Numbered from the stretch's first letter, positions 431 through 46,927 are shown. The stretch is DNA of 64,000 nt from Candidatus Bathyarchaeota archaeon (GCA_963739305.1 CAVTZU010000008.1:1-64000); one strand, 5' to 3'. Notes: generated from the sequence alone by a model not told the origin. Numbers and translations are program-made.

Positions 431-889
431 GAAAAGCATCAGCCCTAGTAGTATAAACCATTGTGAATATGTCTTGCCGTTGTTGTGATCCCAGTCAAGA
501 ATTGATGGTAAGGTTAGCCTTCTCATAGCCTTGTCATAGATTGTTCCAAAATATCATAATAGGAAAATAGATTGGTAAACTTCACTATTCTTCTTCGCCC
601 AACTTTCGGTATATTATTCGTGCTCCTATCAGTATTGCCACCATACCAAATAAACCCAAAAGCACATAGCCAATGATTATCAGAGGTGCCTAAGTCTCGT
701 TATGAGTTCCAGTAGTCGGAAAATTGCACCTAATAATGTTATAACAATAGACTCGTACCATGCTAGAACGCATAAAGTGGAAAATGCAGCAAGAGCTTGC
801 ATTGCGTTCATTATGATGCCTAGATGTCTCTATCGCAAAGTTCCCTAAAAACTGTCGCCTAGACTTGATGACGAGACGACACAGAAAGA

Positions 890-1760: not shown

Positions 1761-1842
1761 AACTTTACTTTAGAGTCATTTTCTTCATGGACGTAGACGT
1801 TCTGGTTGCCTATCTATGATTTGGTTGATTCGTTCAGGATTT

Positions 1843-2826: not shown

Positions 2827-3698
2827 AAGTTCTCACTGTTGACGGTAAAGTTGCGTATAAGGTTTTTATGTTTGCTACTTTTAGCTTTGCATAGCGGGCG
2901 ATGAAGACTCTGGCCCCCATGAATTTAGAATGATTGTGATCTTGAGTGCGGAGCACCGCTAAAGCTCTCTTCAGGTTCATACTGAACCTGGAGGGAGCAA
3001 TAATATCATAGAAAGCACAAAAGACTAACTAACTCTGCTGGCCCTGCGAAGGTACGGCAGCATTATTCTTTTCAATGTTGGCAAGAAGTTTCGGAAGTTC
3101 AACTTCGCTCCACAATCGCCCGTACCTCAACCCATCTCGTGACAATCTCACGGTCAGAGTTCTTCGAAGCTTACTGTCAAATTCACATCCACCGTTTTTG
3201 CATGACATGTCTTGTGCTCCTGGACAACTTGAAGGTTGAGGGTCTTGCTCCCAGAAAAACTCCTGATCTGAACTCTTGTGAGGGAATTGGCAACCACCCG
3301 AGACTGGACTGAGAGCAGGACCCGTCAAGCCTACAATCAGCAAGTTCACGTTGCAACTGGTTAAAAGAGTAATCCTGGAACGACTCTTCATGAAAATAGA
3401 GAGTTCAGTTAAAGTGAAGCGCAGAACGAGCCTTCGCCTCGTGAAAACTGACTCTTGTTGATGCTTTCGTATACGAGCGTTGCTTTTGCAACGAAAGCAA
3501 ACAACCGCTTTCAAAATGATGCTTATCTACAAAGAAGCCTGCGTTCTCTATCCTTAGTAACCAGTATCTGTCCGCCCTAACTAAGTCTCCGGCGCTAGAT
3601 AACAATATGATCGAACTTGCGTTTACACTTCGAAACAATCTTCGATTCATCCATCACGAACGAGGACGCATGAACCCCTTAAGTAATAGTGAATTAAC

Positions 3699-4280
3699 TC
3701 ATTTTTCTTCGTGGGGCTTTTCCCATAATTCAAGCTTTTTCTTCTTAAGTTCCCTGCGTTTTCTATGCAAGAATCTGTAGACAGTGCCGTGCATACTGCC
3801 CTTTATGAGCATCTCGATTGCCTCCCGTGCAATTTGAACCTGGTCCATCGTTCCAATTATGCCCACGGTATGCCCATAGACGGCCACGTTCGCATCAGTC
3901 AATTCCTCAATTATCGCTCGTGTCTTGCCGTTCATCCCGATAATCCGGCCCTTCACGCGCTTAATATCCGCTTCCGACTTCCCGAAGACTGCCCGCAGAT
4001 CAATCAAATCCAGCACGGCTTCTTCGTCGCGAATCAGACGAAAAGCGTGTTCAGGCGAGAATCCTCTGCCTAATGCTGTGACGACATCCTTAGCAGCAAA
4101 AAGCATTGAAGGATCTGCTGCGTTTTCCTTCATCAAAATGTTGACGTCGCCCGCCTCGCCGTCAATCTGGAGCTCGACCGAGAGTTTGTCCTCGATGCTC
4201 TTTTTCGTTCTGCCTTCTGGACCCACGAGGACGCCCACTCGTTCCTTCGGAATTTTTATGAACGTATTAGCTCTAGACAT
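3699..4280 (-). CDS. KH-domain rRNA-processing protein (Dim2/Pno1 family)
   Basis: RVGVLVGPEG and RVKGRIIGMNGKTR KH motifs, GRGFSPE; conserved position after rio1. Confidence 0.92.
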   Translation of the reverse strand: MSRANTFIKIPKERVGVLVGPEGRTKKSIEDKLSVELQIDGEAGDVNILMKENAADPSMLFAAKDVVTALGRGFSPEHAFRLIRDEEAVLDLIDLRAVFGKSEADIKRVKGRIIGMNGKTRAIIEELTDANVAVYGHTVGIIGTMDQVQIAREAIEMLIKGSMHGTVYRFLHRKRRELKKKKLELWEKPHEEK

Positions 4281-5064
4281 GACCAGTAACCCTCCTGTAA
4301 CACTCTTCGACTGAAGGCACCTTAACCTCCAGGCGGCTGAAGTACTTATTAAGGTTAGTTAAGTCTCGGCGCAGAAGGAAATCAGCCATGGGATGCACAA
4401 GCGGCACAGCCTGAGCAACGTCAAACAACACCGTGCGGCCCCGCCATATCATGACGTTATACTCACTGATGTCTCCATGAACCAGGCCGGCTTTCTTGTA
4501 AAGCCTTTCCAAATAGGTCATAAGGTCCTCGTAGACTTTGGCAGAGTTCTTGGGAGTTTTCTCTTTGAGCGACGGGGCACTCTCGCCGTTTTCACCGATG
4601 AACTCCATCACTAGAACATTGTTTTTCACGGCTATTGGCCTCGGAACTCTCACTTTCGCGCGTATGGCCAGCTCAAGGTTCTTGAATTCCTTCTGTGACC
4701 AAGCGAAAATCAGTGCGCGAGTTCCGTGTTTAACGCCTTGGAATCTCGGATCTCCCTCGATGTACTTCAGCATGCCCTTACGGAATTCAGAGGAGATGAC
4801 CAGGTAGATCTTTATTGCTAGTTCTTTCCCTTCCTTGTTCTTTCCCCAGTAGACGCGTGCTTCTTTTCCGGCTTTGATGACTCCGTGAATCTCATCTATG
4901 GTCCCCTTGTTCATGAAGTCGTAGATTACCATGAGCGTAGACCGATCGAAAACCTCTTCCAAGACCTCGTACTCTTCGCTGCGTTTGTCTTTCATCAATT
5001 GATCTGTCTCGTAATTCTTCTCTTCCTTCAGCAGTCTCTTGTCGACGTTTCTGCGGTAGGTCAT
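4273..5064 (-). CDS. rio1: RIO1 family serine kinase
   Basis: GKEARVY, AIKIY, VHGDISEYN, FDVAQAV motifs; start placed at ATG 5064 (track ORF extends to 5178, overlapping aIF-1A). Confidence 0.93.
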   Translation of the reverse strand: MTYRRNVDKRLLKEEKNYETDQLMKDKRSEEYEVLEEVFDRSTLMVIYDFMNKGTIDEIHGVIKAGKEARVYWGKNKEGKELAIKIYLVISSEFRKGMLKYIEGDPRFQGVKHGTRALIFAWSQKEFKNLELAIRAKVRVPRPIAVKNNVLVMEFIGENGESAPSLKEKTPKNSAKVYEDLMTYLERLYKKAGLVHGDISEYNVMIWRGRTVLFDVAQAVPLVHPMADFLLRRDLTNLNKYFSRLEVKVPSVEECYRRVTGHV

Positions 5065-5081: not shown

Positions 5082-5387
5082 CTAGATAGTTACGTGACCC
5101 TGCCTGCGAAGCTGATCTGCCTGCGACTTCGTGTAGCGCCAGATCAAATCTCCACGTTTGTCGCTTTGAAAATCCCATGGTGAAACCAAGACGATGTCGC
5201 CTTCGCGTATCCAGACGCGTCTCTTCATCTTACCGCGGATGCGGCATAAGCGTTCGTGCCCGTCCTGACACTTAACGAGAACACGGTCATAGCCGAGTAG
5301 CTTTATGGCAACGCCTAAGATGTCGTTTGCAGAGGGCAATACAAGCGTGTTCAATTCCTGTTCGGACAGGACCTTCTTCTTACCCAA
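5082..5387 (-). CDS. eif1a: Translation initiation factor aIF-1A (core copy)
   Basis: RLCRIRGKMKRRVWIREGDIVLVSPWDFQ signature; aIF1A-rio1-KH cluster. Confidence 0.95.
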   Translation of the reverse strand: MGKKKVLSEQELNTLVLPSANDILGVAIKLLGYDRVLVKCQDGHERLCRIRGKMKRRVWIREGDIVLVSPWDFQSDKRGDLIWRYTKSQADQLRRQGHVTI

Positions 5388-5467
5388 TCGAGCACCTCGA
5401 AATCATGGCTGTTAAAGGATTATAATTCTTCCTTTTAAAACTATGTTCGAGAGCTCAGATTATCGTA

Positions 5468-6205
5468 CTAATTCCGAAGGTTTCTCGCCGTTGGCCTCGG
5501 CTTTTTTCTGTGAAGACCGACTGCAAGAAGAGTCGAAGTCACGAACAAGGTCAGCAGAATCAATAGCGAATATTCGGGCACCGGTTGGCCCAACACCGCG
5601 TGCAGAATAGTGATAGTAGTGACTGGCTGACCATCATCCGAAGGAACCGTTTGAACGCTACCTATGCTGTCGACCACGCTCATTCCAGCGATTACTTTGC
5701 CGAAAACAGTGTATCTGGTGTCCAAATCCGTATTGTTGACGAGGTTTATGTAAAACTGGCTATTAGCCGAATTCGGCTGACTTGTTTTTGCCATTGCAAC
5801 TGACCCTCTGATATTACTGTGCTTGTTCGGAAGCTCGTCAGGTATGGTTGGCACGATAATTCCTTTCGAGGTTGCGTCGCCACCTTGAATAACAAAGCCG
5901 TGGGCGACTCTGTGAAATATCGTTCCGTCATAGATGCCGTATTGAGTTAGGTTTTTGAAGTTGCCAGATGTAATCGGCATGTCGGCAAACACCTCGATTG
6001 ATATGTTGCCCATCGACGTAACGAGGATTACGACATCATCTTGAACTTTAGAGTACTGACTGTTGGTGTCCTTAAGACTTGGTGAACTGTTAGCTGCATA
6101 CGCCGTATGCGTTGGAGAACCAATTCCGTAACATGGCATTAGGATCAATGCAAGAAAGAGTCCGATGAAGATTGGAAGCGCCCTCATTTCATTCAGCCTA
6201 GTCAT
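5468..6205 (-). CDS. Secreted, membrane-anchored cyclophilin-type peptidyl-prolyl isomerase
   Basis: YDGTIFHRV..GFVIQGGD, RGSVAMA, SQFYINL, YTVFGKV; N-terminal signal peptide; C-terminal VPEY + TM + basic tail. Confidence 0.9.
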   Translation of the reverse strand: MTRLNEMRALPIFIGLFLALILMPCYGIGSPTHTAYAANSSPSLKDTNSQYSKVQDDVVILVTSMGNISIEVFADMPITSGNFKNLTQYGIYDGTIFHRVAHGFVIQGGDATSKGIIVPTIPDELPNKHSNIRGSVAMAKTSQPNSANSQFYINLVNNTDLDTRYTVFGKVIAGMSVVDSIGSVQTVPSDDGQPVTTITILHAVLGQPVPEYSLLILLTLFVTSTLLAVGLHRKKPRPTARNLRN

Positions 6206-6349
6206 ATGTGGAAAATCCGTTTTTTAAAAGTTGCGGAGCTCCTCACTTCGATGCTTCATGGATTGATCGCGTGGCGGCCGCGGTAATCATTGAAGCATAC
6301 CCATTGTTAAGGAAAAAAAGTAGAAAATTGTTGAACTAGGTCGAAAGTC

Positions 6350-6393
6350 TGGGTTTGGGGTAAAGTTTTATCCAACCAAACCAACCAACCAAC
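6350..6393 (+). repeat. Cassette-boundary palindrome copy 1 (forward)
   Basis: TGGGTTT-GGGGTAAAGTTTTATCC-AACCAAACCAACCAACCAAC; core 6357-6373. Confidence 0.85.
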
Positions 6394-6485
6394 ATTCGTT
6401 CCTGCAGAAAAGTTATAGCCAAATCAACTTGAGTATTTGAATTGGTGATTTGGGTTGATTGAAGGCAAGAACGTGAATCTGAGGG

Positions 6486-7238
6486 TTGAATATGGTTGAA
6501 TATGAGCAAAGAAGCAAGGCGTCAAAGCCGTTTGTTTATTTCTGGGAGTCAGTGCAGCATGGTGGCAAGAAAGCAGCAAAAGAAAGGGCAGACTACGTTC
6601 TTAAGCCTATCAATGAGCATCACAGGCGAGCAAAGAAGATAATGGAAATAGGATGCGGAATTGGAGCAGTCCTAGTCAATCTTCCAAAGAGATACCTCAT
6701 CTACGGTTTGGACGTTGAGAAAGACTACATTGAAGTTTGTAGGAGGAAAATTCCCAAAGGAAGATTCTTCGTTTCCAGTATGCACAACTTCAAGATCCCT
6801 GAGAAGTCTGATGTCATATTTTCTGCTGATGATGCAATCAATTTCTTGAAGGACTTTGACCATTGGAAATCCACGTTCAAAACAGTGAGTGAACATTTGA
6901 ACGAAGGCGGGCTCTTCATTTTTGATGTCTACACCCCAAAAATGTTGAGGGACACGCTTCGTTGGCGGGAGAAATACAAGAGGTTGACTTCAGTCAGGGA
7001 ATTTTCAGGAGGATACTACTATGACATGGGCATAGTGAACGGAAACAGGTTGACTTGGGACGTTAAAATATTCGAGAGACTTCCCGAAGGGCTTTTCCAA
7101 CTGAACAAATACAAATTCACAGAGAAAATATATCCAGTTGCAAAAATGAAGTCTGCTCTCTCTGAACACTTTGATATCCTTGAAAATAATCTCAGGGAAG
7201 AAGGCAGAAAGATTCTGTTTGTTTGCAGAAAGAAATAA
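6486..7238 (+). CDS. Class I SAM-dependent methyltransferase
   Basis: IMEIGCGIG motif I, GLDV, HLNEGGLFIFD. Confidence 0.88.
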   Translation: MNMVEYEQRSKASKPFVYFWESVQHGGKKAAKERADYVLKPINEHHRRAKKIMEIGCGIGAVLVNLPKRYLIYGLDVEKDYIEVCRRKIPKGRFFVSSMHNFKIPEKSDVIFSADDAINFLKDFDHWKSTFKTVSEHLNEGGLFIFDVYTPKMLRDTLRWREKYKRLTSVREFSGGYYYDMGIVNGNRLTWDVKIFERLPEGLFQLNKYKFTEKIYPVAKMKSALSEHFDILENNLREEGRKILFVCRKK

Positions 7239-7613
7239 TCCACAGTATTCTTCGAGAAGAATGGAAAGAACCAAAAATACTTACAAAAATGGCTTGAAAA
7301 GACCGATTTTGGTTTTGGGAAAAAGAAAGATGGTCAGCGGCGTTTACTGACCGTGTTTGTGTAGTATAGAACCCGTTGTCCCAAAATATCCATTTTCTTG
7401 TGTGCAGTTTCGAGCAGGTCTTGAATCTCGCTCAGAGAGTTGTAGATTTCTCCAAAGGTTTCCTCGTAGCTCAGTATTCGTCTTCCGCGCGCGCAAGCGC
7501 ATCCGATATTACAAGTTCAATGAAAACTCTTCCAAGGCGACAGCGGTACGTAACTTGATTGAGATGTTTGAGACATAAGGATACATTACGCTAGCAATTG
7601 TAAACGGCACTCG

Positions 7614-8792
7614 TTATCTTGTGTGTCCAAAGCAGTTGCATAGGGCTATTGCATCATATATGTCCACGACACCATCACCGTTGATGTCGGCATCTTCATT
7701 CCAACTCTGAAGGTCAGGTCGGGCTCCAAAGGACTTTGCAAAGAGAAGAGCATCGAATATGTCCACTCGGCCGTCACCGTTCAAGTCTCCACTCATAGCG
7801 TTCGAGAAGTACCCATTCTTGGAAGTGCTAATCAGATTATGTGCTGTCAGGTTGGTTGCTAAACCATCCAATAACAATGGGCATTTCCCAACGTTGATAA
7901 CTTGGAAGGTAACAACCGCCGCTGTATGGTTTCCAAATACGGGTCCGTAACCCAAAGGCAATCCGCTAATAAGAGACATTGCATCACTTGTATTTGACAA
8001 CAAAACCATCGTGTATATCATGGTCCAATTGGTCTGAGCTACAACTTCATGGAACATAACATCTTTCACGTTGACAAATTTTAGGAGTGTCGAGTTCCAG
8101 GAGAGGCCGAAACTGTAGGCTGCGACCCCTGAATTGTCTGCTATACTGTCTAGCTTTATTCCGACCGAGAACGTGCTGTTGATCATGAGGCTCTCGTTTT
8201 TCACTGCGCGGGGATCAACGTAGAATGAAACTTGCGGTTCAGGTGAAGGCGGCGGAGGGATTGGCGGAGGCGGAATACTGTTGCTGAAGAATCCGTCGAT
8301 TGTGTCGTGAACGATCTGAGCAGCCTCGGAATCAGCCAGTTTTGAAACATCAAAATTGAGGGTGCAGTTGCCGACGCTTCTGATCTGAAACAGAATGATG
8401 AAGATCGTGAAGTTTCCTGAAATGGGAGCGTAGCCAGCTTGAAGAGCACCATACCCATCCACGTAAGTGTAGGCGTAGCTGGCGCTGCCGAGTGTATTGT
8501 TAATCTCGTTCTGTATTCCCCAGATGTTGTTCCATTTACTCTGAGGAACTGTTTCGTGAAAAATCACGTCTGTCATGTTGACCGCGCAAAGAAGGGACGG
8601 GTTCCAATTCAACTTTAGTTGAACTCCCATGAGATTCTGAACGTTCTCGATCTTCACTGAGACATTGAAGAATGTTGGAGGATCGACGATGGAAGGTGGG
8701 TCAATGTAAACGCGTGTGGTTTCAGTTGCTAAACCATGGGTAGGTATGAGAATCGTGAAGGTTGCGGAAATCAGCATCATCACGAAAAGCAA
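7614..8792 (-). CDS. Secreted protein with two cohesin-like domains and a C-terminal dockerin
   Basis: Signal peptide; two repeats (YIDP..FNVSVKI..LNWNPSLL / YVDP..FSVGIKL..LSWNSTLL) joined by a Pro-rich linker; GDLNGDGRVDIFD...ADINGDGVVDIYD dockerin Ca loops. Confidence 0.85.
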   Translation of the reverse strand: MLFVMMLISATFTILIPTHGLATETTRVYIDPPSIVDPPTFFNVSVKIENVQNLMGVQLKLNWNPSLLCAVNMTDVIFHETVPQSKWNNIWGIQNEINNTLGSASYAYTYVDGYGALQAGYAPISGNFTIFIILFQIRSVGNCTLNFDVSKLADSEAAQIVHDTIDGFFSNSIPPPPIPPPPSPEPQVSFYVDPRAVKNESLMINSTFSVGIKLDSIADNSGVAAYSFGLSWNSTLLKFVNVKDVMFHEVVAQTNWTMIYTMVLLSNTSDAMSLISGLPLGYGPVFGNHTAAVVTFQVINVGKCPLLLDGLATNLTAHNLISTSKNGYFSNAMSGDLNGDGRVDIFDALLFAKSFGARPDLQSWNEDADINGDGVVDIYDAIALCNCFGHTR

Positions 8793-9031
8793 AGCCCACT
8801 TTCGGCTCGTCTAAACCACTCCCCCTTCACATATACAAGTGACTTGTCGGATACTAATAGTTTTCATTTGACTCGATCTGTTGTTTTTTACACGCCTTTT
8901 ATTGTGAGCATTGCGGGTTTGTTGAGCTTTACCGCGTCAAAAAGAAAACGTGGTAACTCGTTCCGCAGCACGCGCTTTGTAATGCATTATAATACAATAC
9001 AATCTACTTCAAAATGCCAGTCAGTTTTGTC

Positions 9032-9077
9032 GTTTGGGTTTTGGGTTTTGGGGGTAAAGTTTTATCCCACACACAAA
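9032..9077 (+). repeat. Cassette-boundary palindrome copy 2 (forward)
   Basis: GTTTGGGTTTTGGGTTTTG-GGGGTAAAGTTTTATCCC-ACACACAAA; core 9051-9068. Confidence 0.88.
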
Positions 9078-9083
9078 TTCTCT

Positions 9084-9314
9084 TCAATGTTTTCTCCAAT
9101 TCTGAAAGATTGCCCGCCAAAACTCGACAGTGAACACTACTCGTGCTATTGTCCCCAGGACTCCAAGCACCATCGAAACCACACCCAAAAACAAAAGCCT
9201 CGTGTCATGAATGGTGAAATATTCATACAAAGCAATAATAGAAACCAGAATCAGCCCTGAGAAAGCAATAAACAGAAGGTAGTCTTTGTACACTCGTTCC
9301 AGAGTCATTTCCAA
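9084..9314 (-). CDS. Small 2-TM membrane protein
   Basis: 76-aa ORF with two hydrophobic helices; stop a few bases from palindrome copy 2. Confidence 0.6.
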   Translation of the reverse strand: MEMTLERVYKDYLLFIAFSGLILVSIIALYEYFTIHDTRLLFLGVVSMVLGVLGTIARVVFTVEFWRAIFQNWRKH

Positions 9315-9413
9315 CTCCGACGCAAGCCCATCGTAAATGCCTCATCATCGAGGAGTTCTATCTGTGTTTAATTCCTAAGCGTATACTAGCGCGCGCTATA
9401 TGATTTGGACTTA

Positions 9414-10838
9414 TTACTTTCCAAAATCTTGCGAAATCAAAATCATATCGTAGATGTCGACTTGCCCGTCATGGTTTTGATCAGCTGCGGAATTCCATTT
9501 TGGGTCTCCCACAACGCACCCGAAAGAGTCGACGGCTAGGATGTAATTGAAAATATCAACGTTGCCGTTGGAATTCACATGTCCAAATTTGCCTGTTTTC
9601 ACAGACGAGTCTGTGGATTCGCCAATGGAAGCCAATATTTGAAGCCTTATTTGGAAAGGCGGCGTCGAGCCTGCTATCCAAGCGACAGCTGGGTTTCCGA
9701 CGCAGGACTCCGAGGTTCTGGTTCGGCGCACGTAATCAGAGTTGACTTCATCCACTTTCACGTCTTTGACCCAATTCACATAGTCCATCGAGTATGCCGC
9801 CAGTACTTGGTTTGTTTCAGCGTTTATGTAGAAGAAGTATATTCTGCCCGTGACAGTGTCGAAAGTAGCTGAACTGTCGCCTCCCCAATAGCTTTGGTTC
9901 AGCAGAAAGTCGCTGAAATACCAGCTTCCGTTGTAAACGGCAAGTTTCAGGTTTGTGACATAATCCCAGTGCGAGTATAGCATATACATTGTTCCGTTGA
10001 CCACTGTTTCGCACTGAGCCTTGTATAACCCATAATCCAAGTCGGCACCTGAAGTCGCGTATTCGTTGCTCCACTCTGAACCGTTGTAGAACATGTAGTT
10101 GAACTCGTTGCCTCCCCAACTTCCATAGAGGGCCATGAGCCTGCTGTCTTCTACGTACTTCAAAGTCACCTGTGAAACGTATCCGCCGTTTGCGTTGATC
10201 CAATCTTTGCTGAGGTCCCAAGTGACAAAGTCAGTTGTAGAGAAGATTGCGCATCTGTATTCAATTCCTCCATAAAGGTATTCGATGGTCAGCCAATGTC
10301 TATCGAAGGCATAATCACCCCAATAATCGCAGATTCTCCCGCCGATTTCAGGCCCGCTCAGTAGAACAGTTGGCGTTTCCCAAGTAATGTTTCTTGAAGA
10401 TATTGTTCCCATTCTGGTTCTGACGATGCAATCGAAGAAAGAATCGCTGGAGAAGGCTTGCATTGACGTGTATGCAACGACCACCGTATCGTTAAACTGG
10501 TAGAGACTGAAGTACACGGAGATGTTCGCATCTTCCGCCGCGATTTGCGGGTCACTCCAGTTTTCACCGTCCGAAGAAGATTTGTAAAGGATCACGCCGT
10601 CGGTGCACGCTACGTCTGAACCGTTGAAGTAGAAAACAAACCAGTATCCGTCATGGAAGAAAATCTGATTTCCCTTTGTGCCAATTGGATAGTTGAATTC
10701 AGTTTCTGCCACTACGGAAGGAGCATTTGACGCTGAACTTGACCCGTACATTAAAGAGGTCTGCCGACCAAGCGGAAACAACCCGAACAGGATAAGGATG
10801 GAAAACACCGCAATGCTTGCCTTGAGCAAGACCCCCAT
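9414..10838 (-). CDS. Secreted beta-propeller-like (Asp-box/BNR-like) protein with C-terminal dockerin
   Basis: Signal peptide from MGVLLK (10838); Asp-box-like YKSSSDGENW, STTDFVTW, YSMDYVNW; C-terminal ADQNHDGQVDIYD dockerin loop. Confidence 0.75.
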   Translation of the reverse strand: MGVLLKASIAVFSILILFGLFPLGRQTSLMYGSSSASNAPSVVAETEFNYPIGTKGNQIFFHDGYWFVFYFNGSDVACTDGVILYKSSSDGENWSDPQIAAEDANISVYFSLYQFNDTVVVAYTSMQAFSSDSFFDCIVRTRMGTISSRNITWETPTVLLSGPEIGGRICDYWGDYAFDRHWLTIEYLYGGIEYRCAIFSTTDFVTWDLSKDWINANGGYVSQVTLKYVEDSRLMALYGSWGGNEFNYMFYNGSEWSNEYATSGADLDYGLYKAQCETVVNGTMYMLYSHWDYVTNLKLAVYNGSWYFSDFLLNQSYWGGDSSATFDTVTGRIYFFYINAETNQVLAAYSMDYVNWVKDVKVDEVNSDYVRRTRTSESCVGNPAVAWIAGSTPPFQIRLQILASIGESTDSSVKTGKFGHVNSNGNVDIFNYILAVDSFGCVVGDPKWNSAADQNHDGQVDIYDMILISQDFGK

Positions 10839-11033
10839 CTCAAGTTGCACCAATAGTCTGTTTGATGAGCTAAAAGATAAGTCTTTTGAAGATCGTCTCC
10901 CACAGCGACACGTCACGTTTCGCAAATTAGTGCGCGCTAGTTGTTGTTTTGAGTTTTTGCGGGTTGGAGCGCGAGCGTGATGCGAGCGCGACAATAATGG
11001 TTAAGCATTATACTGAATAGAAAAAGGGGGATT

Positions 11034-11079
11034 TGTGGTGTTTGGGTTTGGGTTTGGGATAAAACTTTACCCCCAACCA
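11034..11079 (-). repeat. Cassette-boundary palindrome copy 3 (reverse)
   Basis: TGTGGTGTTTGGGTTTGGGTTT-GGGATAAAACTTTACCCC-CAACCA; core 11056-11073. Confidence 0.88.
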
Positions 11080-11129
11080 GCGCAATCTTATATTTGTTGA
11101 ATCGTAACTGTAGTGATGAGGTCTACTGA

Positions 11130-11243
11130 ATGGGAATCATTCAAAAGAAATGTTCAATTTGCGGAAAAGTCTTTACGACATTAGATAACAAAAACAAATA
11201 TTGCAGTGCCCAATGCGCTGGAAAAGCAAATAAGAAAAAATAA
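11130..11243 (+). CDS. 37-aa zinc-finger microprotein (CxxC...YCSxxC)
   Basis: Translated by hand: MGIIQKKCSICGKVFTTLDNKNKYCSAQCAGKANKKK; GATGAGGT SD-like and TTATATTT TATA-like upstream; below ORF-track cutoff. Confidence 0.7.
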   Translation: MGIIQKKCSICGKVFTTLDNKNKYCSAQCAGKANKKK

Positions 11244-11590
11244 AGACGTCTCAAAAAACCACCATTCTTCGATACGCCCTAATAACGTCCGGTCTACTTA
11301 TGGAAGATTCAACGTTCTTTCTGGAAGAATAGCCATAATTGTCTATAGCAGCATAAAGCAGTCCGTCCTTGGGTAGCGAGCTTTAACTCAACGGTTTCTC
11401 ATAAGACTTAGCTGGTTAAAGTCGAAATAATCATGGCGTCTATGATGATATCACGTCAGTATGAAGGGATTTAAGTTTGGTTCTTTTTTCCCAAGATGAT
11501 TTGACATTAAATTGATTCTGAGGCGCCACAACACCATCTTCTAAAGTAGGCTCACAATGAGCTTGCAGAGCAACTGAAAGAAGAGAAAAA

Positions 11591-11629
11591 GGGTAAAGTT
11601 TTATCCCCAAAACCCCAAAACCCCCAAAC
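11591..11629 (+). repeat. Cassette-boundary palindrome copy 4 (forward, left arm missing)
   Basis: GGGTAAAGTTTTATCCCC-AAAACCCCAAAACCCCCAAAC. Confidence 0.82.
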
Positions 11630-11721
11630 GTGCGCGTACCCCATCTGTCTCTGTCAGTTAGTCACACACAATTGCATAGAAAACCAAAACTCACACACAC
11701 CCAAGAAAGAGCGCGCGTCTG

Positions 11722-12033
11722 TTATGGGATTATTTGGGCGTCTGCGCAACCGCTGATTAGATTTGTTATTTTTATTTTTAGGTGTTCGTTGGGTTTTGCG
11801 TTGCTGATGAAGATTGGAAAGCCTTTGATTCTGGCGATGCCTTCCCCGTTTGGACTCATATCTACTATGTCTACTTCGTATTCTTCCCCAATTTTAATAG
11901 GGTAATTTATGCCTTTGCCGTGTTTGTTTTTTGCGTTTCTTGGAGCTCGCTTTTTGGGACTAAAAAAACATTCCTCGCTTTCAACATTAAATGTTAAGAA
12001 ATGCATTCCAAAGGCATAAGCGTTTTGTCTCAA
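11722..12033 (-). CDS. Single TRAM-domain RNA-binding protein
   Basis: PIKIGEEYEVDIVDMSPNGEGIARIKGFPIFI..AKPNE is a typical archaeal TRAM; true start probably near 11970 (GAGGA-ATG followed by a T7 run is one base out of frame). Confidence 0.85.
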   Translation of the reverse strand: MRQNAYAFGMHFLTFNVESEECFFSPKKRAPRNAKNKHGKGINYPIKIGEEYEVDIVDMSPNGEGIARIKGFPIFISNAKPNEHLKIKITNLISGCADAQIIP

Positions 12034-12116
12034 CCCTGCTAAGAAAAAAGTTAAAGAAACAGACTAGTAGGCTCAGGTGCTATAGACAGCGCGCGTGTCT
12101 AGAATTGTTCCTAAAA

Positions 12117-12149
12117 TTGTGTGTGGGGAAGTCTTATCCCAAACACAAC
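12117..12149 (+). repeat. Cassette-boundary palindrome copy 5 (forward, 2-bp core deletion)
   Basis: TTGTGTGT-GGGGAAGTCTTATCCC-AAACACAAC; core 12125-12140. Confidence 0.75.
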
Positions 12150-12277
12150 TATTTCGTACCTTTCGAATGTTTTGCAGGAAGCGAAACCTGTTTTTTCTCT
12201 TTTCTTTTCAGTTCTTTCTCTCGCTGCAATTTCTTATGCTGCTCTAAACCTGCAGCTTTCTTTTCTTTTCTTGACAA
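12149..12277 (-). CDS. Putative 42-aa lysine-rich basic microprotein
   Basis: Translated by hand from TTG: MSRKEKKAAGLEQHKKLQREKELKRKEKKQVSLPAKHSKGTK; stop abuts palindrome copy 5. Confidence 0.45.
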   Translation of the reverse strand: MSRKEKKAAGLEQHKKLQREKELKRKEKKQVSLPAKHSKGTK

Positions 12278-12471
12278 AACCACATCAACCTTGACTGGCA
12301 ATAGAAGCGTTACGCATTCTAAAGCGTTGTCCTTTTGTCTGCACCTGAAGGGGCGTATACTCGATTCGTATACTACCCCTATATCCTGCTCTTACTGTTC
12401 TTCCTTGCCTGTATTCCTGCTGCTGGATACTATTGCCTGAATCCCGTATACGCCCTGCTAGAAGCATCGTA

Positions 12472-12509
12472 GTTTGGTTTGGTTTGGGGTAAAGTTTTAT
12501 CCCACACAG
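12472..12509 (+). repeat. Cassette-boundary palindrome copy 6 (forward)
   Basis: GTTTGGTTTGGTTT-GGGGTAAAGTTTTATCCC-ACACAG; core 12486-12503. Confidence 0.88.
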
Positions 12510-12579
12510 GTGCGGTGGAACACCAATGCTAAATAGATTCTCTGGTTTACATAGAAAGAGTCTGGGGCATGGGAGCACT

Positions 12580-13644
12580 ATGATACTGATCAAAGAGGCC
12601 ACTGAGGACGATAATGATGCTCTTAATGAACTTCAGAAGAAATGTCCGATGGGCACCAGCATGGTTATTGGAATCGACAGCTCGCCCGACTATTTTGCCC
12701 GTTCTAGACCATTCAAAGAGTGGCAGGTTCTCGTGGCAGTTGAGAATAGTACAATAGTTGGTTCTGCCGCATACGCAATAATCGATACCTGCGTTGAAGA
12801 AAAACAGCTTAAGACTGCCTTTGAGTATGGTTTCATCGTTGACCCTCTTCACAGGCGAAAAGGAATTGCGGAACAACTTCAAAGGCACATCGAGCACGTC
12901 GTGCTGGAGAAGGATGTCAAACTATTGCACCTAGACATAATCGAGGACAACATGCCTTCGATAGACTTATTTTCCAAAATGGGATTCAAGAAAGTGAAAG
13001 ACTGCACAATATTTTCCCTGATGCCTTACAAGAAGCAGAAAACTGCAGGAGAGGCAAACATAAGGAGTATGAACGAGGCTGACGTTGATGATGTAACAAA
13101 CCTGATCAACGAAATGTACCGCGCCTACGATTTCTTCGCTCCTTTCCAACCTAAGGACTTCCTAGAGTATGTCAAGCGAATGCCATACTTCGAGTTTCAC
13201 AACATCCTCGTTCTTGAAGACAACAGTGGCATTAAAGCCTGTCTGGGATACTGGGATCACAGCAAAGTAAGAAGATACATTGTAGAGAAAATGAACCGGA
13301 CATTGAAAATACAGACATACTTGATGAAGTTGATTGGCTTATTTACCGAAATGCCTAGAATTCCCAAGCCTGGCGAACCAATGCTGAACTACAACTTGAC
13401 AGCTATGGCTTGCAGGAACTCAGAAAGCATGACAGAATTGATAAAACATACAGTCAACATTGCTCTCGAGAATAAGGTCAACCAGATCATTGCAGCGGTA
13501 GACCCAAGAAACCCGATAGCTGTGAACTTCTCAAAGTTCAGACACACTGAGATGAAACTACATTTTTTCACCAAATCGCTCAGACAGGAAAGATTACCGA
13601 ACCTTGGACAAAGGAAACTCTACGTTGACGCAAATCAAATGTAA
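12580..13644 (+). CDS. GNAT family N-acetyltransferase (tandem GNAT fold)
   Basis: VDPLHRRKGIA acetyl-CoA motif, NMPSIDLFSKMGF; second repeat NIRSMNEAD; ATG 12580 after GGGAG. Confidence 0.85.
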   Translation: MILIKEATEDDNDALNELQKKCPMGTSMVIGIDSSPDYFARSRPFKEWQVLVAVENSTIVGSAAYAIIDTCVEEKQLKTAFEYGFIVDPLHRRKGIAEQLQRHIEHVVLEKDVKLLHLDIIEDNMPSIDLFSKMGFKKVKDCTIFSLMPYKKQKTAGEANIRSMNEADVDDVTNLINEMYRAYDFFAPFQPKDFLEYVKRMPYFEFHNILVLEDNSGIKACLGYWDHSKVRRYIVEKMNRTLKIQTYLMKLIGLFTEMPRIPKPGEPMLNYNLTAMACRNSESMTELIKHTVNIALENKVNQIIAAVDPRNPIAVNFSKFRHTEMKLHFFTKSLRQERLPNLGQRKLYVDANQM

Positions 13645-13678
13645 CTATCGTTCACATTCACCCTGCAGCATACGACGA

Positions 13679-13723
13679 TTTTGGTTGGTTGGATAAGACT
13701 TTACCCCCAAACCCAAACACACA
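13679..13723 (-). repeat. Cassette-boundary palindrome copy 7 (reverse)
   Basis: TTTTGGTTGGTT-GGATAAGACTTTACCCC-CAAACCCAAACACAC; core 13691-13707; between convergent genes. Confidence 0.88.
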
Positions 13724-13744
13724 GAGAACTCACTTGAATTTGGA

Positions 13745-14674
13745 CTACTCACGTTTCTTGAAGAAAATGCCCAAGTTGCGAGGAAGACTGTCAAGGTAGT
13801 CCACTAGACTTAGACGCTCCAGTTTCCTTTGTGCTGTGGCTGGCAGCTTGTCATATGGTACACCTTCTAAGAGTAGAGCGGTTTCTTCCTCGGAGAATTC
13901 CTCTTCCTCTCCTGTCCATTGTATAACTTCTTTGTTCTGTGGACAGACTCTTTGGCAGCGCATACATCCTACGACGCAGTTATGCCACGAAGCATCCATC
14001 CACTTGGGAAACGGAACGTCGCCTTTCTTTTCATTATGATAAGAGATGCATCGTTCAGCACGCAGAAGGAAGCGGTCAGAAGGAATGGCTTCTGTGGGGC
14101 AAGCTCGGCGACACAGTTCACATTCCTCGCAGCTCTTCATCATCGTTGCTTCCTGCCAAGAGTCTTCTTCACAAGGCATATCAGAATAGACGGCAACTAG
14201 CTGGAGAAAACTTCCCAGCCCAGATACATAGCAAATATTGTTCCTGCCATATTGAACGAGACCACTTCGAGCTGCCAGCAGTTTGAGGGGCAGTGCCGTT
14301 CTTGCTGATTTGTAACCTTTTTCTCTAAATATTTTTGCTAGAAGATTTTCAACTTGTTTCGCTATGTCATCGTATGCTGTGTAAGTAGGAGGAAGAATCA
14401 GTGGACGTCGTTGTCCATTCCAGACAAAAATCGCTCGAGTCTGGGGTCTTGGGACAGCTACAACAATCAAGGATTGTGCTTTCGGCAGGTCTTCAGGAAT
14501 TTGGAAGTTGAACCAAGCAAGGCGGTCTTGATAGAACTGACCATCAAGGAAGGCATGACTACGCAGCTTTTCTATCTCTTTCTGCAACTCCTGCAAATGA
14601 AAGGCAGAGACAATTCGTGCCTGAAAGCCACGCTCTCCTAAGCGAACAAACAAGTTATCGACAAAACTGTCCAT
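13745..14674 (-). CDS. 4Fe-4S double-cluster protein, QueG/reductive dehalogenase-like
   Basis: LPLKLLAARSGLVQYGRNNI, CEECELCRRACPTEAI, RCIS, CVVGCMRCQRVCP. Confidence 0.8.
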   Translation of the reverse strand: MDSFVDNLFVRLGERGFQARIVSAFHLQELQKEIEKLRSHAFLDGQFYQDRLAWFNFQIPEDLPKAQSLIVVAVPRPQTRAIFVWNGQRRPLILPPTYTAYDDIAKQVENLLAKIFREKGYKSARTALPLKLLAARSGLVQYGRNNICYVSGLGSFLQLVAVYSDMPCEEDSWQEATMMKSCEECELCRRACPTEAIPSDRFLLRAERCISYHNEKKGDVPFPKWMDASWHNCVVGCMRCQRVCPQNKEVIQWTGEEEEFSEEETALLLEGVPYDKLPATAQRKLERLSLVDYLDSLPRNLGIFFKKRE

Positions 14675-14706
14675 GACTCATGACAACATGTTCATTTTTA
14701 TAAAAG

Positions 14707-14753
14707 TTTGGTTGGTGGTTGGTTGGGGTAAAGTTTTTTTTATCCCACACACA
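14707..14753 (+). repeat. Cassette-boundary palindrome copy 8 (forward, expanded T run)
   Basis: TTTGGTTGGTGGTTGGTT-GGGGTAAAGTTTTTTTTATCCC-ACACACA; core 14725-14746. Confidence 0.85.
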
Positions 14754-14767
14754 TTTTTGCGTCCGGT

Positions 14768-15187
14768 TCAGCTTCGTCGTTCTGCCTTCTGAGCGCCTTT
14801 CGCTGACACTTCATAATACTTCTTCCAGTCTATCTGTGTGACTTCAAGAATGTTCCCATCGGGGTCCGTGAAAGCTGCTTGCTTCCCACCCCAAGTTTCT
14901 TCGTGCAGGTCATTCTTGAAGTTCACGCCTTTCGCCTTCAACTTCTGATAAACCTCATTGACGTTGCTCACAAGGAACTCTACTGTGTTCGATACATTGC
15001 TTAGAGCATTTTCTTTGGGTTTCGGCATCAAGCCTATTTCCACGCCGCCACATTCAAAGCCAACGTAACTTGAGAACTCGTACTTCTTTTCCAAGCCCAA
15101 TACCTCTTCATAGAACTTGGCAGCCTTCTTCAAGTCTGAGACGTAAAGAGTTATGCCCCAAACAGTTTTAATCATTGCGTCCCCCAA
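14768..15187 (-). CDS. VOC/glyoxalase family protein
   Basis: LYVSDLKKAAKFYEEVLGL and WGGKQAAFTDPDGNILEV. Confidence 0.9.
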   Translation of the reverse strand: MGDAMIKTVWGITLYVSDLKKAAKFYEEVLGLEKKYEFSSYVGFECGGVEIGLMPKPKENALSNVSNTVEFLVSNVNEVYQKLKAKGVNFKNDLHEETWGGKQAAFTDPDGNILEVTQIDWKKYYEVSAKGAQKAERRS

Positions 15188-15235
15188 TGCTGAGGCAACC
15201 GAGAATCCAAATAAATCCTTTCATATTCTGGATTC

Positions 15236-15269
15236 GGGGCGTATAGAAAGTTTTATCCCACCAACCACC
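15236..15269 (+). repeat. Cassette-boundary palindrome copy 9 (right half, degenerate left)
   Basis: GGGGCGTATAG-AAAGTTTTATCCC-ACCAACCACC; marks the right end of the first accessory island. Confidence 0.65.
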
Positions 15270-15471
15270 TCCGCACCATCCTTCAGCGCAGGGATCGTGA
15301 TTCGTCTTTCGCGCGCGCGGCGACGACTACCACGCCAAAACAGCCAGAACAGAAACAGAAGCTCTCAAACAGATAGAAGCAGGATTCGATTATGTGTGTG
15401 AAGTAGGAGAGGTTAAACTGTTCAGAAAACGAAAATGGCCAGAAGGTTTCATCACACGGAAAAAAGCATGA

Positions 15472-15768
15472 TTAAAACTTCACGATTTGAGCGTGCGGTA
15501 TTCCCTCAATTCTCAAAACAGCTTCAGGGTGAACGTAGCCTTTCTCTATCGCTTTTTTCACAACGTTCTTGCCGACCATATTCACTATCGTCGAGGACTC
15601 GATCATTGATACGGCTTCTTCAATGTTGACTCGAGCACCTTTGTAGAAATTCTCTTTCACGCAGAAAACGATCTTGCCTTCACGAAATGTTCTACCCAAG
15701 ATCTCCGTGTCACACATGCAGAGAAGAACGTTTCTTCCGATCTTTGTGAGATTCATGTACACGTCCAA
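15472..15768 (-). CDS. DUF424 family protein
   Basis: CDTEILG..F, FYKG, IVNMVG, GIPHAQ; adjacent to aIF-2beta. Confidence 0.85.
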   Translation of the reverse strand: MDVYMNLTKIGRNVLLCMCDTEILGRTFREGKIVFCVKENFYKGARVNIEEAVSMIESSTIVNMVGKNVVKKAIEKGYVHPEAVLRIEGIPHAQIVKF

Positions 15769-46227: not shown

Positions 46228-46265
46228 GTTGGGTTTGGGGGTAAAGTTTTATCCCAAACACACAG
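46228..46265 (+). repeat. Cassette-boundary palindrome copy 10 (forward)
   Basis: GTTGGGTTTG-GGGGTAAAGTTTTATCCC-AAACACACAG; core 46238-46255. Confidence 0.88.
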
Positions 46266-46832
46266 CTAGCTACGATATCTCATTAGCTCCGCAGCGTTAT
46301 CAGGCAAGTGGTCTATTCCACCAAACTCTTTGACAACAATCGACTCTATCTTGGACTTCAGTTCTTCCCTAATGCCAGGGTAAGTCATTTCTTCTTCTCC
46401 GCCAATGCTCTCACAGTCATCCTCGACTATAATATCTGGCAGGACTTTCTCCGCCACGTCTTTGTAATCCTCACCTTCTTTTCTGGAAAGTAGTTGTCCT
46501 TGAGGGAATTTGAATTTCTTGAGAATTTTTCGTATGATGTCGATTTCCTCTGATTTCGTTCTGGATGTAAGATACACAATAGTTGCACCTTGTTTCTTCC
46601 AGGCTCCGATTTTTCTTACGCTGTTCCCTATTGGAACTGAAGCTGCGAAATATTCAGGAGAAGGTGCGTCACCAGATTTCCGCAGTTTTTCAAGCTCTTC
46701 TTTCGAGAGGTTTGACCATTTCTTGACTTGCTTGACTATCTCTTCTCTTGGAATACCAATCCATTTCTTGTTTGTTAGAATAGTTCCCTCGGTGAAAACC
46801 AGAATCTTGACAGACAGGTCTACGCCCTCCAA
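46266..46832 (-). CDS. HAD-like hypothetical protein
   Basis: ILVFTEGT, IVYLTSR, IIVEDD resemble degenerate HAD motifs; sole gene between palindromes 10 and 11. Confidence 0.65.
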   Translation of the reverse strand: MEGVDLSVKILVFTEGTILTNKKWIGIPREEIVKQVKKWSNLSKEELEKLRKSGDAPSPEYFAASVPIGNSVRKIGAWKKQGATIVYLTSRTKSEEIDIIRKILKKFKFPQGQLLSRKEGEDYKDVAEKVLPDIIVEDDCESIGGEEEMTYPGIREELKSKIESIVVKEFGGIDHLPDNAAELMRYRS

Positions 46833-46888
46833 GCTGGACCTTACAATTTCCTAAGCAGTCGGAGCGTATCTTATGGCTTGTGGTAGGA

Positions 46889-46927
46889 TTTGGTTGGTGG
46901 GATAAAACTTTACCCCCAACCCACCCC
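46889..46927 (-). repeat. Cassette-boundary palindrome copy 11 (reverse)
   Basis: TTTGGTTGGT-GGGATAAAACTTTACCCC-CAACCCACCCC; core 46899-46916. Confidence 0.88.

Follow-up and report, generated by a model that had tools for sequence, protein, structure and literature searches.

The closest described parallels to the locus reported here are integron arrays, pdif/Xer modules, REP-type palindromes and the exchange elements of Neisseria. Integron cassettes mostly lack promoters, and their attC sites are conserved in structure, not in sequence; each folds into a long, imperfect hairpin that has extrahelical bases and the boxes R''(RYYYAAC)...R'(GTTRRRY). A pdif module has a site at either end, the two pointing in opposite directions. 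The minimal mobile elements and uptake-sequence islands of Neisseria exchange accessory genes in a cassette-like manner via conserved flanks and with no element-encoded enzyme; these flanks offer hundreds of bases of gene homology, and the elements occupy fixed chromosomal places. Integrons and integrase-less arrays (CALINs) are reported from bacteria and archaeal MAGs (PMC9668308), with cassettes lying "generally in the same orientation". The archaeal XerA-dif site consists of two 11-nt arms and a 6-nt spacer (PMC8371274, PMC2958812). Bathyarchaeia are abundant and nearly uncultured, and the movement of their accessory genes is largely unexplored.

We analysed a 64,000-nucleotide stretch from a Candidatus Bathyarchaeota archaeon (GCA_963739305.1 CAVTZU010000008.1:1-64000; the window), in which an initial annotation had placed a gene-cassette array, delimited by a repeated palindrome, at 6350-15269. 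On balance we take this palindrome, P1, to be the core of an undescribed site-specific cassette-exchange system acting in trans.

Results and discussion

P1 is a polar palindrome with compositional arms

P1 is the 18-base palindrome GGGGTAAAGTTTTATCCC. At up to three mismatches it has nine matches in the window against 0.04 expected, a number reached by none of 100 shuffles, and the whole 2.3-Mb genome holds about 50 copies; the repeated site is real. Six of the nine matches fall in 6350-15269 and three elsewhere in the window (Table 1). The nine copies first reported for the array thus comprise six clean ones and three, at 12125, 14725 and 15247, that are real yet degenerate, and the window total, clean and degenerate together, is 12 rather than the 13 counted earlier. 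P1 is present in 11 of 11 genomes of the genus, in which the 18-mer is kept despite divergence of core DNA to about 77% identity; other genera have 0-5 copies.

The site is longer than first described: the palindrome extends past the 18 bp into about 10 G/T-rich bases on the left and about 10 A/C-rich bases on the right, the full site being the G/T-rich arm, GGGGTAAAGTTTTATCC(C/A) and the A/C-rich arm. Polarity is constant among 41 non-identical copies, with G4 opposite T15 and G9 opposite T10; the half cores differ constantly (G4/G9 versus A/A), a G-type half is always paired with an A-type half, and in the 41-copy consensus the centre varies no more than the ends. Besides about 60 sites that are good on both halves there are eight right and seven left halves, whose breakpoint is the edge of the central AAAGTTTT; at some of them GCGCGC takes the place of the expected G/T arm. 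P1 hairpins are weak (stem 7-8 bp, -2.5 to -8.8 kcal/mol, z -0.2 to -2.2) and are not followed by a T run. The centre is similar to the BRE/TATA-like promoter elements of the same genome, AAAGTT(T)TAT, a likeness that counts against the cassette-exchange reading.

P1, its reverse complement and two shorter forms had no match in the text of the literature searched. Nor did that literature yield a description of such a site in work on archaeal integrons, XerA/dif, mobile elements of Bathyarchaeia or archaeal cassette recombination.

Table 1 Sites, units and genes of the P1 loci in the window
Feature	Position	Strand	Description
Leftmost variable unit	5445..6356		Cyclophilin gene 5468-6205 (-); not syntenic in congeners; common to contig C30
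P1	6357..6374	+	1 mismatch; left joint of the unit absent from C30
Unit 1	6375..9050		Methyltransferase gene 6486-7238 (+); dockerin/cohesin gene 7614-8792 (-); exactly absent in 99.3%-identical C30
P1	9051..9068	+	Exact; right joint of the C30 deletion
Unit 2	9069..11055		526-aa protein of no known family, 9414-10994 (-)
P1	11056..11073	-	Exact, reverse direction
Unit 3	11074..11589		37-aa zinc-ribbon gene 11130-11243 (+)
P1	11590..11607	+	1 mismatch
Unit 4	11608..12124		TRAM-domain gene 11722-12033 (-)
Degenerate P1	12125..12140	+	Two bases missing: GGGGAAGTCTTATCCC
Unit 5	12141..12485		Conserved multi-copy stretch; no supported gene
P1	12486..12503	+	Exact
Unit 6	12504..13689		GNAT acetyltransferase gene 12526-13644 (+)
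P1	13690..13707	-	2 mismatches, centre variant GTCT; between convergent genes
Unit 7	13708..14724		4Fe-4S protein gene 13745-14674 (-), own TATA-like element
Degenerate P1	14725..14746	+	Four extra T in centre: GGGGTAAAGTTTTTTTTATCCC
Unit 8	14747..15246		Glyoxalase/VOC gene 14768-15187 (-)
Half site	15247..15259	+	Right half AAAGTTTTATCCC and A/C-rich arm; unrelated sequence replaces the left half
Second locus	46238..46916		188-aa gene between P1 46238 (+) and P1 46899 (-)
P1	55767..55784	-	2 mismatches; flanked by convergent genes; close to the right end of 34 kb absent from congeners

Array content and arrangement

The cargo named in the initial annotation (methyltransferase, dockerin/cohesin, 37-aa zinc ribbon, TRAM, GNAT, 4Fe-4S and glyoxalase/VOC) was recovered with Pfam. 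Its statement that all sites are intergenic holds for supported genes, the only overlaps being with the unsupported ORFs 8736-9260 and 11440-11610, and housekeeping blocks are indeed free of P1, all nine window sites lying in two stretches that are missing from five congeners. The stretch at about 11260-11590 in unit 3 is conserved and multi-copy, with no supported ORF and no Pfam or Rfam match; neither Rfam families nor tRNA genes were found anywhere in the window. Unit boundaries away from P1 also exist, at 11258 and at about 12370-12390, and count against the reading of the units as P1 cassettes.

The spacing of 92 neighbouring P1 pairs has a median of 1018 bp, and the median cassette is about 1 kb long. 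As a rule a cassette has a single gene and the promoter for it, TATA-like elements being found inside the units. With duplicates removed, 66 neighbouring pairs have the same direction and 24 the opposite; this co-direction of neighbours is the one observation that points to the asymmetric centre as a putative determinant of direction, as the initial annotation had it. Along a closed congener genome, P1 direction seemed polar (12 of 2000 shuffles), but this was lost after merging neighbouring sites (362 of 2000).

Units are gained, lost and reused at the site

Contig C30 of the same assembly, 99.3% identical on both sides, is without exactly 6374..9042 and retains one P1, a joint made of the left flank from the site at 6357 and the last core base and right flank from the site at 9051; gain or loss between close relatives, for which the initial annotation had proposed a search, thus falls exactly at the core. 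Two of three indels between contigs C2 and C3 (96-98% identity) are likewise bounded by P1. The conserved genes flanking the array are 10 kb apart here and 0.3, 0.5, 0.95, 4.5 and 4.75 kb apart in five congeners; judged from such sequence comparisons, the 10-kb array locus is an insertion hot spot. The sequence TAAAACT, which occurs at either end of the 10 kb, was considered as a crossover marker and rejected, the homology of the empty site extending beyond it on the left.

Units 2, 3, 4, 5 and 7 and the 46238-46899 unit were found again in other species, several of them between P1s and in unrelated outer DNA. Cross-species identity is 87-99% for units 3, 4, 5 and 7 and 79-82% for unit 2 and the 46238-46899 unit, neighbouring core DNA being about 77% identical. 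A 79% identical copy of unit 2 lies between two P1s in G005, the zinc-ribbon gene of unit 3 adjoins P1 in four congeners (95-99% identity), unit 4 has a 94% identical counterpart enclosed by two P1s in G008 (L013), and unit 5 has counterparts of 87-91% identity in four congeners. Unit 7 recurs at 95% in G009 and at 88% in G005, flanked by P1 each time and with unrelated outer DNA, and the 46238-46899 unit lies between two P1s in G002 as well (82% identity). The variable arms of P1 travel together with the adjacent unit. Besides passing from species to species, cassettes turn up again in (pro)viral contigs; the P1 cargo of one viral contig includes a TIR-domain gene.

In a comparison set of 100 sequences (829 kb, 228 P1 sites), a P1 centre is no more than 30 bp away from 65 of the 282 internal homology endpoints (null mean 5.1, maximum 12 in 200 trials), and the expected concentration of synteny breaks at the motif was thereby found, at 13-fold enrichment. 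Within the genome, 12 of 219 endpoints are at P1 versus 0.3 expected. Among alignments at no more than 99.5% identity, 0 of 475 cross P1 by 30 nt and 154 end at P1; in the control for this test, 12 crossings appeared where pieces of a single record overlap. Of 170 junctions, not one is shared collinearly, and no copy of P1 stands at a conserved position beside core genes.

Every comparative pattern given above would also arise by short-homology recombination at any conserved 18-38-bp repeat. P1 could then be a passive hot spot, a binding site kept for other reasons (chromatin, insulator, uptake signal) whose 18-38 identical bases are used by homologous or microhomology recombination. The same genome has a 4.2-kb indel with another repeat, TAGCGCGCGC, at its ends, so short repeats as such can bound indels in this genome; GCGCGCGC by itself is strongly over-represented and 64% intergenic; and both observations, the GCGCGC found in place of some G/T arms, and the outcome of the enzyme search below (13 loci, 100 sequences, two families over 41 genomes) would fit such a passive site. 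We nevertheless consider it unlikely, since the exchange rate implied by 0 of 170 shared junctions and 0 of 475 crossing alignments is hard to obtain from 18-bp homology, and since the fixed polarity, the 66:24 excess of same-direction pairs and the half sites that break beside the centre all count against it. A housekeeping binding site would moreover be expected to hold an orthologous position by some conserved gene, and P1 holds none. The Neisseria elements differ too, in that P1 units share only 18-38 bp and appear at many places.

P1 has no fixed relation to genes

The absence of a fixed relation to gene starts and ends, already apparent in the array, extends to 38 sites, of which 11 lie between divergent, 8 between convergent and 19 between tandem genes (a hand tally on crude ORF calls, with 4 of 42 sites dropped). 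Gene and site direction are unrelated: of the 39 genes that stand alone in a unit between same-direction sites, 21 share the direction of the sites and 18 oppose it. It is very improbable that P1 is an ordinary regulatory signal, that is, a promoter, operator or two-way terminator of an accessory-gene regulon. Its likeness to the BRE/TATA-like elements of the genome, the genes at 11630 and 12526 that begin 22 nt after a site and the several stop codons 10-45 nt from one are what such a signal would explain; the mixture of gene arrangements, the independence of site and gene direction, the lack of any site kept beside orthologous genes at the 170 junctions, the weak hairpins with no T run, and the TATA-like elements carried by the units themselves are what it would not.

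Comparison with described systems

P1 arrays share with integron arrays and CALINs mostly single-gene units of about 1 kb with one imperfect palindrome between each, units that are singly gained, lost and exchanged between species, mostly co-directed sites, a cargo rich in GNAT, VOC and methyltransferase genes, and a location often far from an integrase. The comparison with integrons made in the initial annotation is sound as to this cassette logic and as to its reservation that the site is not an attC. P1 is a fixed 18-mer with compositional arms, whereas attC sites are defined by structure, 55-140 nt long and provided with R and L boxes; P1 cassettes carry genes in either direction with their own promoters. 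GTT-like runs lie 5' and AAC-like runs 3' in the 41-copy consensus, the reverse of the attC box order, and no attI or Pc platform was found. The best of ten tyrosine recombinases scanned with the IntI model TIGR02249 scored 62.1 bits against a cut-off of 265, and a six-frame search of the genome reached 34.9 bits. A canonical integron array without integrase and with unusually short attC sites is scarcely credible here, despite the tandem short units split by an imperfect palindrome, the integron-like cargo and the integrons and CALINs reported for archaeal MAGs (PMC9668308): IntI and the R''/R' boxes in attC order were not found, the 7-8-bp hairpin is weak, genes are not co-oriented, and one exact 18-mer is used throughout.

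P1 resembles the pdif/Xer modules of Acinetobacter plasmids in its short core, an inverted repeat of the kind that recombinases bind, in modules of one to few genes and, as proposed here, in an enzyme encoded elsewhere in the genome and supplied in trans. The site might be divided into 6 conserved plus 5 compositional bases, AAGTTT as a putative spacer, and the mirror image of the first arm. In contrast to pdif, 66 of 90 neighbouring pairs have the same direction; dif is single-copy whereas P1 has about 50 copies per genome; and the strongly conserved part of P1 is 18 bp with TAA-N4-TTA spacing. No XerA reached the NCBIfam cut-off (best NF040815 score 92.6 bits against 220). REP/BIME-RAYT and IS200/IS605 palindromes resemble P1 in being genus-specific, extragenic, present in tens of copies and found in all gene arrangements, but REPs do not mark the joints of exchangeable units, the P1 hairpin is weak, and neither Y1 nor TnpB was found in this genome.

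Search for the enzyme and proposed mechanism

The genome searched for recombinases is 97.1% complete. It had no match to the resolvase domain of serine recombinases (PF00239), to the Y1 (HUH) transposase or TnpB (PF01797 and PF07282) or to the IS110 DEDD transposase (PF01548). Recombinase genes are absent from 13 congener array loci (about 149 kb); a tyrosine recombinase occurs within the fetched flanks of only 7 of the 100 sequences, those seven being of different families; and clusters of 1100 neighbouring ORFs showed no enriched recombinase or nuclease. The suggestion that the presence of the motif might correlate with a recombinase family failed for the two tyrosine recombinase families (261-aa and 304-aa types) profiled across 41 genomes, neither of which follows P1.

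The cassettes might instead be non-autonomous, cargo-carrying transposons with terminal inverted repeats (...kkkGGGGT and ATCCCmmm...), moved by a transposase in trans into the 8-bp target AAAGTTTT, in which case P1 would be two abutting ends plus the target. All units do have inverted arm-plus-half-core ends with AAAGTTTT on both sides, half sites look like one end and AAAGTTTT beside unrelated DNA, and genes lie either way inside the units (21 versus 18). We hold this to be quite improbable, given a centre that varies no more than the ends do, an unusual trait in a target duplication, and half cores that differ constantly and join only as G-type plus A-type. Lone units bearing two half sites are uncommon (8 right and 7 left halves versus about 60 full sites), and the transposase searches above, which covered Y1, TnpB and IS110, found none.

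Returning to site-specific exchange acting in trans, we propose that the system would excise, insert and reshuffle small gene cassettes at P1, each cassette ending in an A/C-rich arm on one side and in a G/T-rich arm on the opposite side. Strand exchange within the 18-bp core would restore one complete P1 per joint; recombination of two same-direction sites would release the intervening DNA; and insertion at another P1, or in rare cases at a sequence resembling the centre, would build arrays. We infer the enzymatic, site-specific nature of the exchange, and with it the position of the strand cut and the kind of enzyme, which would be encoded elsewhere; these genomes have many divergent tyrosine recombinases, and one of them is the likeliest candidate. 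Somewhat short of an even chance is what we would give the fuller statement, that a previously unrecognised archaeal system with a polar 18-bp site, G/T and A/C arms and a putative, possibly new type of trans-acting recombinase moves promoter-bearing single-gene cassettes, defence genes included, among chromosomal hot spots, the species of one Bathyarchaeia genus and their viruses, parallel to integrons in function and independent in origin.

Implications and further observations

One short sequence marks the joints of a highly fluid gene pool. A pattern search with P1 can yield a cassette catalogue from any metagenome and make gene flow between species and viruses traceable, and a pull-down with the 18-mer is a direct route to the protein that recognises it. 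If the exchange is enzymatic, it would be a second, independently evolved integron-like solution, set apart from integrons by a fixed site defined by its sequence, by cassettes that may point either way and by promoters of their own, and possibly a new site/recombinase pair for engineering. If it is passive, a repeat of 18-38 bp would suffice to make every junction unique among the sampled genomes, which bears on how archaeal recombination shapes pangenomes.

The methyltransferase gene of unit 1 sits between what remains of the N- and C-terminal parts of a RimL-like GNAT gene. The 85-nt "repeats" around it, examined as attC-like ends, were rejected as such, since they belong to a family of GNAT paralogues, of which they are the promoter and the two termini of the protein (N and C).

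The short contigs of the public runs gave no demonstrable circular or inverted junction. Many joints between them are P1-to-P1, including back-joints that would fit circles; their shorter sides measure only 20-33 nt, which is the repeat itself, and they are evidence neither way. The contigs of these runs often end at P1, and several short stretches have a very high summed depth.

Structure and copies of P1

The 18-mer GGGGTAAAGTTTTATCCC (P1) matches the window nine times at up to three mismatches, against 0.04 matches expected, and none of 100 shuffles attained this number. The initial annotation had proposed nine palindromes delimiting a gene-cassette array at 6350-15269; six of these are clean copies and the other three are degenerate, and three more clean sites lie beyond that range. 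The 2,317,032-base source assembly contains 50 sites (12, 14, 16 and 8 with zero, one, two and three mismatches, respectively), clearly clustered and carried by 17 of its 36 contigs; the few three-mismatch matches inside long ORFs are probably due to chance.

Positions of P1 and related sequence features (window coordinates unless a contig is named)
Feature	Position	Direction	Remark
P1, in 6350-15269	6357	+	≤3 mismatches
P1, in 6350-15269	9051	+	≤3 mismatches
P1, in 6350-15269	11056	-	≤3 mismatches
P1, in 6350-15269	11590	+	≤3 mismatches
P1, in 6350-15269	12486	+	≤3 mismatches
P1, in 6350-15269	13690	-	≤3 mismatches
P1, beyond 6350-15269	46238	+	≤3 mismatches
P1, beyond 6350-15269	46899	-	≤3 mismatches
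P1, beyond 6350-15269	55767	-	≤3 mismatches
Degenerate P1	12125		two bases missing
Degenerate P1	14725		four additional T
Half site (degenerate copy 15247)	15242		right half alone, adjoins unrelated DNA
Half site	C18:4950		left half
GCGCGCGC/CGCGCGCG	7480-7495		example
GCGCGCGC/CGCGCGCG	12083-12092		example
GCGCGCGC/CGCGCGCG	15305-15318		example

Alignment of 41 non-identical copies revealed a structure larger than the core, a 38-bp site with about ten G/T-rich bases to the left of the core (73% G+T) and, to its right, an A followed by about nine A/C-rich bases (30% G+T). Two constant breaks, G4 opposite T15 and G9 opposite T10, interrupt the 18-bp palindrome of the core and give every site a direction. 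Natural variants exist at core positions 4, 11, 15 and 18. The breakpoints of the half sites lie beside the central AAAGTTTT; that P1 marks cargo-carrying inverted-repeat elements inserting at AAAGTTTT is decidedly unlikely. In some copies GCGCGC stands in place of the G/T arm. GCGCGCGC/CGCGCGCG occurs 351 times genome-wide; crude ORF calls take up 88% of the genome, and 64% of the copies fall outside them.

Presence and absence among strain variants

The assembly includes strain-level variants (contamination 7.8%; overlaps at 95-99% identity between many contig ends). Contig C30 aligns with the window at 99.3% identity over 11052..9042, and the alignment resumes immediately at 6373..5437. The 2.67-kb segment from site 6357 to site 9051 is thus lacking and one P1 is left, with the left flank of site 6357 and the last core base and right flank of site 9051. 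The exact sequence common at this joint amounts to 17-18 bases, fewer than the usual assembly words, which makes a chimeric join unlikely. Three indels distinguish contigs C2 and C3 (96-98% identity). Two have P1 at their bounds; the third spans 4.2 kb and has a direct repeat of TAGCGCGCGC at its ends (G000:C2:5781 and 9980). Within the genome, 12 of the 219 distinct homology endpoints fall within 30 bp of P1, against about 0.3 expected. One contig end (G000:C10:109989-117278) is a 7.3-kb inverted repeat of itself at 94.9% identity that contains two P1 copies and is probably an assembly artefact.

Homology between genomes ends at P1

The window was pooled with 99 loci (13 congener, six viral and 80 from the genome-collection matches listed), giving 829 kb and 228 sites; the pooled loci were selected for containing P1, and empty sites elsewhere were sampled for the window alone, by genus-wide BLAST. 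Among alignments of at least 200 bp and at least 80% identity, 65 of the 282 distinct internal endpoints are no more than 30 bp from a P1 centre; in 200 trials of random placement the mean was 5.1 and the highest count 12. Not one of 475 alignments (at least 150 bp, at most 99.5% identity) crosses a P1 by 30 nt on each side, and 154 of them terminate within 35 bp of one; the 12 crossings above 99.5% identity, which serve as a control of the method, proved to be overlapping pieces of the same records. Likewise, none of the 170 sites situated 300 nt or more away from the end of a locus has collinear homologues of both sides in another sequence (homologues of both sides in different places, 23; of one side, 69; of neither, 78), and no alignment of the genus-wide BLAST of the window runs through a P1 site.

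Neighbouring sites less than 6 kb apart (92 pairs) have a median spacing of 1018 bp (quartiles 634 and 1980, range 339-4809), and 68 pairs share their direction versus 24 that are opposed (66 versus 24 with duplicate units removed). An apparent polarity of P1 along the closed chromosome of the congener G001, where + copies fall mostly on one arc, was gone once neighbours were merged (362 of 2000 shuffles).

These data show that P1 is a joint for the exchange of small promoter-bearing gene units, at a rate that leaves no shared junction among the sampled genomes, and that the units reach other species and viral contigs. We lean towards a dedicated site-specific system, because a polar 18-mer is kept across a genus whose core DNA has fallen to about 77% identity, same-direction neighbours are in excess, half sites exist, and the deletion product is a clean single site.

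Variable places in the window

In five congeners the order of an MBL-fold gene, KH, RIO1, a small gene, a gap, DUF424, aIF2-beta and CobA is conserved, and the gap measures about 0.3, 0.5, 0.95, 4.5 and 4.75 kb; in the window it measures 10 kb (5445 to 15470). A second stretch of about 34 kb (~22.2-56.3 kb), which contains the remaining three P1 sites, is absent from four congeners, in which the genes homologous to 20865-21158 and 56342-56845 adjoin, with one extra gene between them in G002. All nine window sites therefore lie in non-syntenic DNA, a fact that is weak alone because the two stretches together account for about 70% of the window. TAAAACT, the P1 centre reversed, stands at both ends of the 10-kb stretch (5437-5445 and 15462-15475); the left copy belongs to the promoter of the conserved small gene, and homology to the empty site of G009 extends 6 nt beyond it. 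At the place of the 34-kb stretch G001 carries a 15-kb insert of its own, bordered by a tyrosine recombinase. Within the 0.95-kb RIO1-DUF424 gap of G001 (loci L001 and L002) is a small ORF whose translation, read by eye, shows a GIY-YIG-like motif; GCGCGCGC flanks this ORF on both sides.

Units reused in other species

The cargo named in the initial annotation was recovered by Pfam: methyltransferase, dockerin/cohesin, zinc ribbon, TRAM, GNAT, 4Fe-4S protein and VOC. BLAST of window 5200-15500 against the genus placed several single units much closer to their congener copies than the conserved flank at 5200-5448, which is 70-80% identical. For the Fe-S unit (13708..14724), identity is 93% with G009 and 87% with G005 (95% and 88% by local BLAST); for the TRAM unit (11608..12124) it is 94% with G008 and 92% with G005. 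The zinc-ribbon stretch (gene at 11130-11243) reaches 95-99% in four genomes, and the stretch adjoining it 93-97% in several. In the fetched loci the unit copies are again flanked by P1, with unrelated DNA outside the sites. The A/C-rich and G/T-rich arms travel with the adjacent unit and vary in repeat number, the core being the sole sequence shared by all contexts. The unit between the two sites at 46238-46899 is present in G002 at a different place, there too enclosed by two P1 sites.

Recurrent ends also lie away from P1, at 11258 and about 12370-12390. Window 11260-11590 and 12149-12392 recur at 87-97% identity at many places in several congeners and gave no supported ORF and no Pfam or Rfam match. 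Their summed depth is very high in contig sets from peat and wetland, and they may represent small RNAs or genes of very small size. The methyltransferase gene is flanked by remnants of a RimL-like GNAT gene, its promoter and first codons (6403-6503) and its last 15 codons (7238-7325). Intact paralogues of this GNAT gene are arranged in tandem in G001, and its middle part seems to have been replaced here.

Evidence against a promoter or terminator role of P1

In a hand tally based on crude ORF calls, the flanking genes are divergent at 11, convergent at eight and tandem at 19 of 38 sites with up to two mismatches, four of 42 being left out since their neighbours were unclear. Gene and site direction are unlinked in the 39 single-gene units between same-direction sites (21 with, 18 against). 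Single-strand folding is weak in eight copies (-2.5 to -8.8 kcal/mol; z -0.2 to -2.2), which speaks against intrinsic termination and against recognition by structure, as in attC or REP. The units bear TATA-like elements of their own, and the P1 centre resembles such elements (AAAGTT(T)TAT); that P1 is itself a regulatory signal is highly improbable.

P1 across genomes and viruses

At up to two mismatches the motif is present in all 11 genomes of the genus, with 24-42 copies in each of the seven largest. In the same family and order, thirty genomes from other genera hold 0-5 copies; with the reversed control pattern one match was obtained in total. Among the exact-match loci listed from a species-representative genome collection, 75 of 80 belong to Bathyarchaeia/Bathyarchaeota MAGs. 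Six IMG/VR contigs bear the motif, one of them in three copies. Terminase and portal protein genes are present on one of the six, where a TIR-domain gene is enclosed by a P1 and a degenerate P1 and a Shedu-like gene is adjacent; in another, type I restriction-modification genes adjoin P1.

Search for the enzyme and comparison with known systems

The genome has 15 Phage_integrase matches, 12 above cut-off; the best scores of its recombinases are 92.6 bits against the XerA NCBIfam cut-off of 220 and 62.1 bits against the integron integrase cut-off of 265. A search covering serine recombinases, Y1 transposases, TnpB and IS110 transposases found none in the genome, and the 13 congener array loci (~149 kb) have no recombinase genes. 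Recombinase genes occur within the fetched flanks of only seven of 100 sequences; in two cases the gene is 58 and ~650 bp away from P1, and the two proteins share only 34% identity. Across 41 genomes, two recombinase families are patchy in the genus or common in P1-free genomes. Clustering of 1100 neighbouring ORFs gave the RimL-like GNAT as the commonest (13 of 99 loci) and no enriched recombinase or nuclease. The enzyme, if it exists, therefore acts in trans. Short-homology exchange at a palindrome retained for another reason would agree with this lack of an enzyme and with a GCGCGC-bounded indel; set against the site polarity and half sites that favour a dedicated system, we regard it as unlikely.

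The P1 system works in the manner of integron arrays (PMC9668308) or pdif modules (for Xer-dif, with two 11-nt inverted arms around a 6-nt spacer, PMC8371274, PMC2958812), yet it fails defining tests of each, such as an integron integrase or a XerA above cut-off; a canonical integron array is the least probable reading of all. Neither the motif string nor, by topic, a description of such a site was found in the running text of the literature searched. There is a fair chance that the P1 system, which falls within the already known site-bounded cassette exchange, is an independent invention.

A tyrosine recombinase gene at window 893-1739 (-), non-syntenic in congeners, is split by a frameshift, and an intact 283-aa copy (99% identical) lies on contig C31. 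A ~90-nt repeat adjoins the P1 at 11056 (window 10932-11036; also in the fetched loci L135-L138). In G008 and G009 it is found 7-100 nt downstream of a variety of tyrosine recombinase genes with no P1 nearby, and it may be the attachment site of a family of integrating elements.
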